Sequence record: PQ666539
DNA from: Shigella phage sb1
Direction: 5' to 3' (one strand)
Length of the DNA: 64,000 nt
In this document: piece by piece, positions 31,261-31,328 of the stretch
Layout of the letters: each line of letters begins with the position of its first letter
How positions within the stretch are numbered: position 1 is the first letter of the stretch
Notes under the pieces: generated by a model
Told to the model about the DNA's origin: nothing
The model's database searches: none
The model's input: the letters and a program-made list of their open reading frames with translations, nothing else
Position numbers and translations under genes: made by a program

Positions 31261-31328
31261 TTTTATTCTCCGAGATGTTTAATTGCGGTACAGGTATATA
31301 ATATCATATCCTGTACCAAATTAAACAA

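Follow-up and report, generated by a model that had tools for sequence, protein, structure and literature searches.

In T4-like phages, cassettes that combine an early promoter with a stem-loop have been described as promoter-early stem-loops, or PeSLs (Arbiol et al. 2010, PMC2839356; Comeau et al. 2014, PMC4122927). Such cassettes recur within a genome, with a preference for small non-essential ORFs, and are associated with insertions, deletions or gene replacements among related phages. [quoted passage not shown] The early promoters of T4 follow a pattern of their own, with a -35 of the form GTTTAC/TTTACT, a TGn-extended -10 and an A-rich stretch upstream (PMC2988021).

Here, we describe a hairpin in the spacer between the homologs of T4 genes 30.8 and 30.7 in Shigella phage sb1 (record PQ666539), using a stretch of 64,000 nucleotides of this genome to which we refer as the window. 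The window is that of a Tequatrovirus, and across the 30.8-30.7 stretch it shares 97-99% identity with many T4-like coliphages. The element is very probably of the PeSL type, with an early promoter that lies within a hairpin of the sense RNA under selection. As such, the finding is an ordinary one, because cassettes of a promoter and a stem-loop have already been described in T4-like phages (2010, 2014). The locus is orthologous to an early promoter region of T4, so that its kind is known already and, for T4, the instance as well. What may be new is modest. The stem appears to be selected at the level of the sense RNA and to have been re-invented with unrelated sequences in several genera; the features of a terminator are absent, which puts annotations as rho-independent terminators in question; and the same topology is predicted to mask the ribosome binding site (RBS) in some genera as well as behind two other promoters of the window.

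The inverted repeat and its surroundings

The initial annotation had pointed to a perfect 8-bp inverted repeat at 31286-31316, between a 30.7-like and a 30.8-like gene. Such a repeat, GGTACAGG-N15-CCTGTACC, is indeed present, but its start had been placed one base too early: by sequence inspection and an inverted-repeat scan, the full repeat GGTACAGG-tatataatatcatat-CCTGTACC occupies 31287-31317 (Table 1). Its placement between these two genes was borne out by the Pfam matches of the neighbours (PF06919 and PF06019). Both flanking ORFs lie on the - strand and leave a spacer of 68 nt, which on that strand has the general form stop(30.8)-GTTTAA-tttGGTACAGGatatgaTATTATataCCTGTACC-...-GGAG-ATG(30.7) and reads in full TAA(30.8 stop)-tt-GTTTAA-ttt-GGTACAGG-atatga-TATTAT-ata-CCTGTACC-gcaattaaacatctc-GGAG-aataaaa-ATG(30.7), with the ATG of 30.7 at 31260. 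Within the AT-rich stretch gtagtaaaaTAAttGTTTAA, 2 nt separate the stop codon of 30.8 from the G of the -35 downstream of it. According to Pfam, the flanking genes belong to families of unknown function; some GenBank records name the gp30.7 homolog a 'putative baseplate hub subunit' or a 'head vertex protein'.

Table 1. Features of the 30.8-30.7 region and GTTTAC-type early promoters of the window
Feature	Position	Strand	Basis or fold score
Core inverted repeat GGTACAGG-N15-CCTGTACC	31287..31317	-	sequence, inverted-repeat scan
Core repeat arms, coding strand	5' arm 31317..31310; 3' arm 31294..31287	-	
Extended hairpin of read-through RNA	31276..31327	-	folding, ~22 pairs
-35 element G+TTTAAT	31320..31326	-	sequence match
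Extended -10 TGaTATTAT, in hairpin loop	31298..31306	-	sequence match; same element in T4
Predicted transcription start	~31291 (G of GTACC), within 31289..31293	-	inferred from promoter geometry
GGAG Shine-Dalgarno of 30.7	31268..31271	-	sequence
30.7 homolog, 121 aa, served by the promoter	30895..31260	-	Pfam PF06919, E 1e-51
30.8 homolog, 110 aa	31329..31661	-	Pfam PF06019, E 2e-58
P30.8 promoter, source of read-through RNA	31717..31689	-	
Early promoter of 30.7, nested	31326	-	z -5.8
Early promoter, nested	35388	-	z -5.4
Early promoter, nested	22980	-	z -5.0
Early promoter, nested	38713	-	z -5.8
Early promoter, nested	46584	-	z -2.5
Early promoters, not nested	31718, 47310, 50616, 63985	-	z above -0.8

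By itself, a bare 8-bp repeat is weak or at best moderately informative evidence, since perfect inverted repeats of 8 bp or more, counted with loops of 3-20, number 93 in the window, where 27 +/- 5 are expected from Markov-1 simulations. This excess of more than threefold includes many terminator-like or intercistronic hairpins. On the coding strand, the pairing at the 30.8-30.7 spacer extends to about 22 pairs, ordered as the outer arms UGUUUAAUU and AAUUAAACA, the core stem and an inner A-U stem, and has a stability of -24 kcal/mol (z = -6.2 to -6.7), which was matched by none of 200 dinucleotide shuffles. Under DNA parameters, the extended hairpin still reaches -14 kcal/mol (z = -6.0). Its outer arms are specific to T4-type phages and pair perfectly in the window only, and the base of the extended stem is located 4 nt before the GGAG of 30.7. 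A search of Rfam gave nothing above threshold at the element, the one sub-threshold match being to a mir-126 hairpin (25 bits against 47, E = 0.13).

An early promoter with its -10 in the hairpin loop

The 30.8-30.7 spacer carries a predicted T4 early promoter of the sigma-70 type whose TGn-extended -10 lies in the loop of the hairpin. On the - strand, a -35 TTTAAT is followed after 16 nt by the -10 hexamer TATTAT (31303..31298), which is preceded by TGa; the early-promoter consensus quoted by the annotators of phage SA20RB is GTTTAC(N14)gtggTAttaT. The spacer of T4 differs from that of the window by a single base (GTTTAC vs GTTTAA). At this position, 31321, T4, the closest GenBank relative (Ec_MI-02) and every other spacer sampled read GTTTAC/TTTACT. 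Only the window has the C-to-A change, which weakens the -35 and removes the sole mismatch of the outer stem (-20.1 to -24.0 kcal/mol).

Both promoter elements have been kept widely. In the comparison of spacers, the -35 and the -10 are present in 11 genera, namely Tequatro-, Gapriver-, Dhaka-, Mosig- and Marfaviruses as well as Jiaoda-, Kanagawa-, Kagamiyama-, Moon-, Karam- and Gelderlandviruses. The record of TuIa (AJ621579), which comes from the Nivinskas laboratory, has -35, -10 and RBS signals annotated at the homologous place; in its feature table, the labels of the -10 and the -35 are interchanged. The RefSeq and GenBank records of T4 contain no promoter feature at the 30.8-30.7 spacer, and our literature search found no genome-wide maps of T4 transcript 5' ends (dRNA-seq, Cappable-seq). 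Truncaite and co-workers (2006) are reported to have mapped two strong early promoters, together with RegB sites, in the 30.x cluster. In experimental use, the 30.7 mRNA of T4 serves as a standard example of an early transcript, its identical GGAG being a target of the RegB endoribonuclease (PMC9409239, citing Truncaite et al. 2006).

The TATAAT to which the initial annotation had drawn attention does occur in the AT-rich loop, at 31297-31302 in the + strand loop sequence TATATAATATCATAT. As a promoter box, however, it did not hold up: it is the antisense image of the - strand -10, being the reverse complement of the ATTATA within it, and the + strand offers no usable -35, in that the sole -35-like hexamer stands at a distance of 13 nt and TTTAAT-18-TATCAT makes a weak alternative. 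Two other promoter classes were rejected as well. There is no MotA box as would mark a middle promoter, and the spacer is absent from the table of mapped middle promoters, in which P30.2 and P31 are the nearest entries; for a late promoter, no TATAAATA is present on either strand of the spacer.

The predicted start, 7 nt after the -10, lies inside the 3' arm, and a transcript from the 30.7 promoter would therefore lack the 5' arm and form no stem. Its predicted sequence begins GUACCGCAAUUAAACAUCUCGGAG..., and RNA initiated at P30.8 or upstream has both arms.

A further promoter-like sequence, TTGACA-18-TAAAAT, is located inside the end of 30.8 (31331-31360, - strand), where 11/12 consensus positions are matched and SA20RB annotates a promoter. 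It is found only with the T4-type allele of 30.8. A transcript from it would begin at the base of the extended hairpin, such that it would carry a 5'-terminal stem-loop.

Conservation of the pairing in relatives

Spacers upstream of 30.7 homologs were gathered from GenBank phages, IMG/VR and metagenomes, the searches of the latter two contributing few new lineages, and folding across lineages was restricted to the segment from the -35 to the ATG. Conservation of the palindrome in relatives, which had been raised in the initial annotation, proved to be one of complementarity and, across genera, not one of sequence.

Tequatro-, Gapriver-, Dhaka- and Mosigviruses keep GGTACAGG/CCTGTACC, with a G.U pair in one variant (CTTGTACC). 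In the Marfavirus Kpn BM7, the arms GGTGTAGG/CTTACACC form part of a 15-bp stem with two double compensatory changes and one G.U pair, and those of the paralogous cd.3-cd.2 cassette are GGTAGAG/CTCTACC. The arms of Jiaodaviruses (TTGGGTGGT/ACCACCCAA) are in a different register, Kanagawa- and Kagamiyamaviruses have GCTGATTGAGTGT/ACACTCAATCAGC, and Cronobacter phage S13 carries a 13+4-bp stem around TTGCGC-17-TAAGAT. In Moon-, Karam- and Gelderlandviruses, it is CUCCGUUGUAU in the promoter spacer that pairs, with AUACAACGGAG at the Shine-Dalgarno as its partner.

Folds of the segment from the -35 to the ATG have z = -2.8 to -6.9 in every lineage save TuIa (z = -0.15). There, the stem has been lost and the promoter kept, and the hairpin is thus dispensable in at least one phage. 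The stems of Jiaodavirus, Kanagawa- and Kagamiyamaviruses, Cronobacter phage S13 and the Moon group are unrelated ones that occupy the same place; in distant genera, such stems have z = -4.2 to -6.9, and over at least six genera the stem is either kept by compensatory change or replaced in this manner. For the early promoters of the window that are not nested, z is above -0.8, values of +0.5 to +1.2 also being given. In an alignment of 15 sequences, standard pairs make up 94.4% of the cells, as opposed to 24-46% with slid partners; both sides change in 7 of the 14 pairs, and the covariation score was reached by 0/500 shuffles, a significance that is inflated because the aligned sequences are related and represent only some six to eight independent events. 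Taken together, the comparative data make a solid, though not overwhelming, case that the complementarity within the spacer is under selection.

As for the molecule on which selection would act, the stem cells that deviate from Watson-Crick pairing are G.U on the sense strand in 23 cases and A.C in 2, and the sense folds are at least as stable as the antisense folds in 22/23 sequences. The ratio of 23:2 argues for selection on the sense RNA and not on a DNA operator. Accordingly, we assign the stem to the sense RNA, for which the alternative would be a hairpin of the sense-strand DNA. With respect to an operator of palindromic type, the five promoters of the window that are nested (see below) have different arms and no common half-site, and the arms also vary from genus to genus. 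Hence, of the operator overlapping a promoter that had been proposed initially, the promoter overlap stands, although on the - strand, and the operator does not, in view of the G.U bias and the lack of a common half-site; of the RNA processing hairpin proposed alongside it, the RNA hairpin is upheld by the conserved pairing and the excess of G.U over A.C, with processing as a possible role.

In every genus, a motif rich in A and C (AAACA, AACAAA) also recurs in the stretch that leads from the hairpin to the Shine-Dalgarno of 30.7. It may be a site for ribosomal protein S1 or a translational enhancer, and in T4-type phages it also pairs with the -35 in the outer stem.

Nested promoters and hairpins elsewhere in the window

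A pattern search with fixed spacing retrieved no further copies of the cassette, as the copies differ by indels, and it was replaced by a census of GTTTAC-type promoters with a downstream Shine-Dalgarno and ATG. Nine of these are present on the - strand of the window, and in five of them the promoter is nested in a hairpin that brackets the -10 (Table 1).

The cassette at 35340-35388 (- strand), GTTTACtttaTGGTAGAGttgtgaTATTATagCTCTACCA...GAGG...ATG, has a fold of -22.7 kcal/mol (z = -4.8) and is a paralog of the 30.7 cassette as well as the ortholog of the T4 early promoter Pe133295. At Pe133295, the T4 record describes the 14-nt loop as the 'inverted complement of previously reported sequence', which could reflect an old sequencing or cloning artefact or else a real flip between the inverted arms. 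Downstream of the cassette, a 175-aa ORF without Pfam match (34801-35328, - strand) is found in place of T4 cd.2. Homology to T4 stops just after the Shine-Dalgarno, which points to a gene replacement at the cassette boundary.

Two near-identical paralogous cassettes, GTTTACAAGTCCCTCGTGTTGTGTTA...CTTACTGACATAACATGAGGA, lie at 22916-22980 and 38650-38713 (- strand) before different genes, a DUF5498 gene just after alt and a 72-aa ORF. In both of them, CCCUC of the promoter spacer pairs with the GAGG Shine-Dalgarno, and opening the Shine-Dalgarno and AUG in read-through RNA costs an additional +10.6 and +8.7 kcal/mol, respectively. The fifth nested promoter, GTTTACAgaaGGGTAGTAGtgtgaTACTATTACCC (46529-46584, - strand), has a 12-bp stem with the 3' arm over the -10, and its Shine-Dalgarno is unmasked.

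Within the 30.x cluster, a stable hairpin is present in each of three consecutive spacers. That between 30.9 and 30.8 (31689-31768, - strand) displays the other PeSL layout, in which a canonical terminator, GAGGACUCCUUCGGGAGUCCUU with a U-tract, is followed by the early promoter GTTTACA-17-TAGTAT; a weak CUUUGU/ACAAAG pairing adjacent to the 30.8 Shine-Dalgarno adds 5.4 kcal/mol to the opening cost, the fold as a whole not being significant. In the 30.7-30.6 spacer, a GGGGC-UUCG-GCCCC hairpin (30868-30887) lies just past the 30.7 stop. It has no U-tract in the sense direction and is called a + strand terminator by the terminator scan.

Recombination at the cassette

Gene 30.8 occurs as two alleles of 333 and 369-372 nt with about 55% nucleotide identity (seen at seven loci), and these are joined to 30.7 types in different combinations. 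Phage ime09 has a 30.8 of the VR7 type (88% identity to VR7, 56% to the window), followed by a 3' half of the spacer and a 30.7 gene of the T4 type (100% and 97% identity to the window, respectively). Among Dhakaviruses, MN04 carries one allele, and PSD2002 and CLB_P2 carry the other. The switch between alleles is located inside the shared GTTTACTTTGGTACAGG. The distribution of the 30.8 alleles is thus independent of 30.7 and of genus, which argues for repeated exchange at the promoter cassette. Mobility of the cassette itself was not seen, in that it is always upstream of 30.7 in the 14/14 loci from IMG/VR.

Possible roles of the hairpin

[quoted passage not shown] Here, the two are mutually complementary, and it is this complementarity that places the -10 in a hairpin loop. 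A polymerase that initiates at the 30.7 promoter would start in the 3' arm and produce a transcript with an open leader, and the hairpin would form solely in RNA that reads through from P30.8 or beyond. On such RNA, it could serve as an intercistronic boundary element that shields the message of 30.8 against 3'-to-5' degradation after a cut further downstream, made either in the 30.7 Shine-Dalgarno, where the RegB site lies, or at another point of the leader. In addition, the conserved DNA of the cassette serves as the crossover point at which different 30.8 alleles are joined to 30.7. Of the roles considered, a decay or processing boundary that protects 30.8-containing RNA is the one we prefer, but we do so tentatively and with rather less than even confidence; to the explanation as a whole, comprising the identity of the element, the read-through hairpin, the boundary role and the crossover point, we would give an even chance.

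The only processing site documented nearby is the RegB cut in the GGAG of 30.7 (PMC9409239). The distance between hairpin and Shine-Dalgarno varies from 4 to ~25 nt among lineages, however, and GGAG is not universal, which makes a specific link to RegB weak. Furthermore, in a spacer that is short and has a central -10, nearly every hairpin would come to enclose the -10, and the nesting may reflect crowding and not design. A site for RNase III was considered and set aside, since only T4-type phages have a stem of ~20 bp or longer, whereas that of the other lineages measures 9-15 bp.

A different role was proposed in the PeSL papers (PMC2839356), in which the stem-loop acts as an attenuator or terminator of transcription. 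At the 30.8-30.7 spacer, it would stop or reduce the polymerases that arrive from upstream, such that 30.7 would be expressed mainly from its own promoter. The sole PeSL stem-loop that has been tested functionally, an element of RB49, strongly attenuated a downstream reporter, with a loss of lacZ expression similar to that caused by the rrnB T1 terminator (PMC2839356), and this favours a role at the level of transcription over one in stability. The GenBank record of SA20RB, too, labels the hairpin a rho-independent terminator, by WebGeSTer. Nonetheless, we regard attenuation at this locus as unlikely. No U-tract follows the stem, the next 8 nt holding at most two T in the window and in all lineages examined, and a consensus terminator scan that reports the hairpin after 30.9 misses the one between 30.8 and 30.7, which leaves the label in the SA20RB record unsupported by the sequence. 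Moreover, the RB49 stems consist of a G-tract and a C-tract, unlike the A/U-rich 8-bp core found here, and the loop of the Moon type, at ~40 nt, is incompatible with intrinsic termination. In the window, the candidate intrinsic terminator would have a loop of 15 nt (4 nt with the weak inner A-U stem) and two T in the following 8 nt, and it was rejected.

The hairpin might instead gate translation, by blocking ribosomes on read-through 30.7 RNA, which would confine translation to the transcripts of the nested promoter. The principle is established for the T4 genes e, soc, 49 and I-TevI (PMC3014915). It is also what the folds suggest for Moon-, Karam- and Gelderlandvirus spacers, where the read-through fold masks the RBS at an extra opening cost of +12.6 to +13.5 kcal/mol (Moon, Karam and Melville), and for the window cassettes at 22980 and 38713. 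At 30.7 itself, however, the Shine-Dalgarno and the AUG are outside the stem, and opening them takes 1.4-1.5 kcal/mol in the read-through RNA vs 2.1-2.4 kcal/mol in the promoter-proximal RNA. The difference between the two amounts to -0.7 kcal/mol in the window and -0.9 kcal/mol in T4, and ranges from -0.1 to +1.5 kcal/mol in VR7, JS98-like and Mosigvirus spacers. A gate at 30.7 thus seems quite improbable.

To much the same degree, we doubt that the complementarity is without function, a product of chance or a relic that persists by virtue of the conserved promoter region. It is true that the arms are near-invariant in Tequatro-, Gapriver-, Dhaka- and Mosigviruses, such that most of the conservation there comes without a covariation signal, that TuIa does without the stem, and that inverted repeats abound across the window. 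But chance would not readily account for the unrelated, stable stems at the same place in distant genera, nor for the double compensatory changes in the Marfavirus and in the paralogous cd.3-cd.2 cassette, and the other early promoters of the window are devoid of such structure.

Finally, we consider it highly improbable that the palindrome is an element of the DNA. It might be an operator to which a dimeric repressor binds in order to shut off the early promoter; otherwise, promoter opening or recombination might be modulated by a cruciform or by a hairpin of single-stranded DNA. In favour of this, the palindrome overlaps the -10, the way in which T4 early promoters are shut off has been explained only in part (PMC2988021), the stem is stable with DNA parameters, recombination junctions fall in the cassette, and an inverted orientation was once published for the 14-nt loop of the paralogous T4 cassette. 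Against it, no half-site is common to the five nested promoters of the window, the relatives conserve the pairing and not the sequence, with arms that shift register even onto the Shine-Dalgarno, and neither a duplex site with symmetry nor a cruciform of two strands would be expected to show the excess of G.U over A.C. Crossovers in the cassette require conservation of sequence only, not symmetry.

The boundary role that we prefer for the 30.7 hairpin would be one outcome of a wider arrangement, which we regard as possible but doubtful. In it, the nesting of early promoters in hairpins would be a general, selected design of T4-like phages that gives a gene two kinds of leader, an open one on RNA from its own early promoter and a folded one on read-through RNA. 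The position of the 3' arm would then determine the outcome, either translation that is silenced or coupled (as in the Moon type, 22980 and 38713) or a boundary for decay or processing (as at 30.7). If this is true, the principle of e, soc, 49 and I-TevI would extend from late to early promoters, and the stem-loops of PeSLs would act post-transcriptionally, in place of the terminator role that has been proposed for them. Should the masking of the RBS be confirmed, it would mean that T4-like phages can tell promoter-proximal from read-through early transcripts, and the picture of immediate-early and delayed-early expression would be refined.

Comparison with known systems

Both in T4 and in bacterial mRNAs, there are intercistronic stem-loops that stabilise the message; these hairpins are stable, have no U-tract and stop exonucleases that enter from the 3' end. 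The hairpin described here resembles them in being stable, in its position just 3' of the 30.8 cistron and in having no U-tract, but differs in that it overlaps a promoter.

With T4 e, soc, 49 and I-TevI, the element has in common that the promoter lies inside a hairpin, such that long transcripts would fold and short ones would be without the 5' arm (PMC3014915); at 30.7, the removal of the 5' arm would follow from the predicted +1 within the 3' arm. However, the internal promoters of those genes are late (or middle), whereas that of 30.7 is early, and their 3' arm holds the Shine-Dalgarno or the AUG, whereas that of 30.7 ends at least 4 nt before. The full pattern fits the spacers of Moon-, Karam- and Gelderlandviruses and the window cassettes at 22980 and 38713.

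The likeness to T4 early promoters such as Pe133295 (cd.3-cd.2) consists in the GTTTAC -35, the TGn-extended -10 of the TATTAT type and the A-rich stretch upstream. Pe133295 is a paralogous copy that has the same nested hairpin with a compensatory change from C-G to G-C. The promoter of 30.7 departs from this pattern by a spacer of 16 nt instead of 17, and in the window by GTTTAA instead of GTTTAC.

The PeSLs differ from the element in some respects. In T4 and PST, the stem-loop of the PeSL is described as lying just upstream of the promoter (PMC4122927), whereas the 30.7 stem encloses the -10; the stems of RB49 are composed of a G-tract and a C-tract, that of 30.7 of GGTACAGG; and the published role as terminator or attenuator is unsupported by the 30.7 sequence, which has no U-tract. 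In its layout, on the other hand, the 30.8-30.7 element is, as far as sequence can tell, a member of the published class, with all of the sequence-level characters found: an upstream stop in an AT-rich stretch, a sigma-70-type early promoter with its stem-loop, and the Shine-Dalgarno and start of the downstream gene, in a cassette of the kind that is repeated in the genome and sits at gene-replacement junctions, both of which are seen here.
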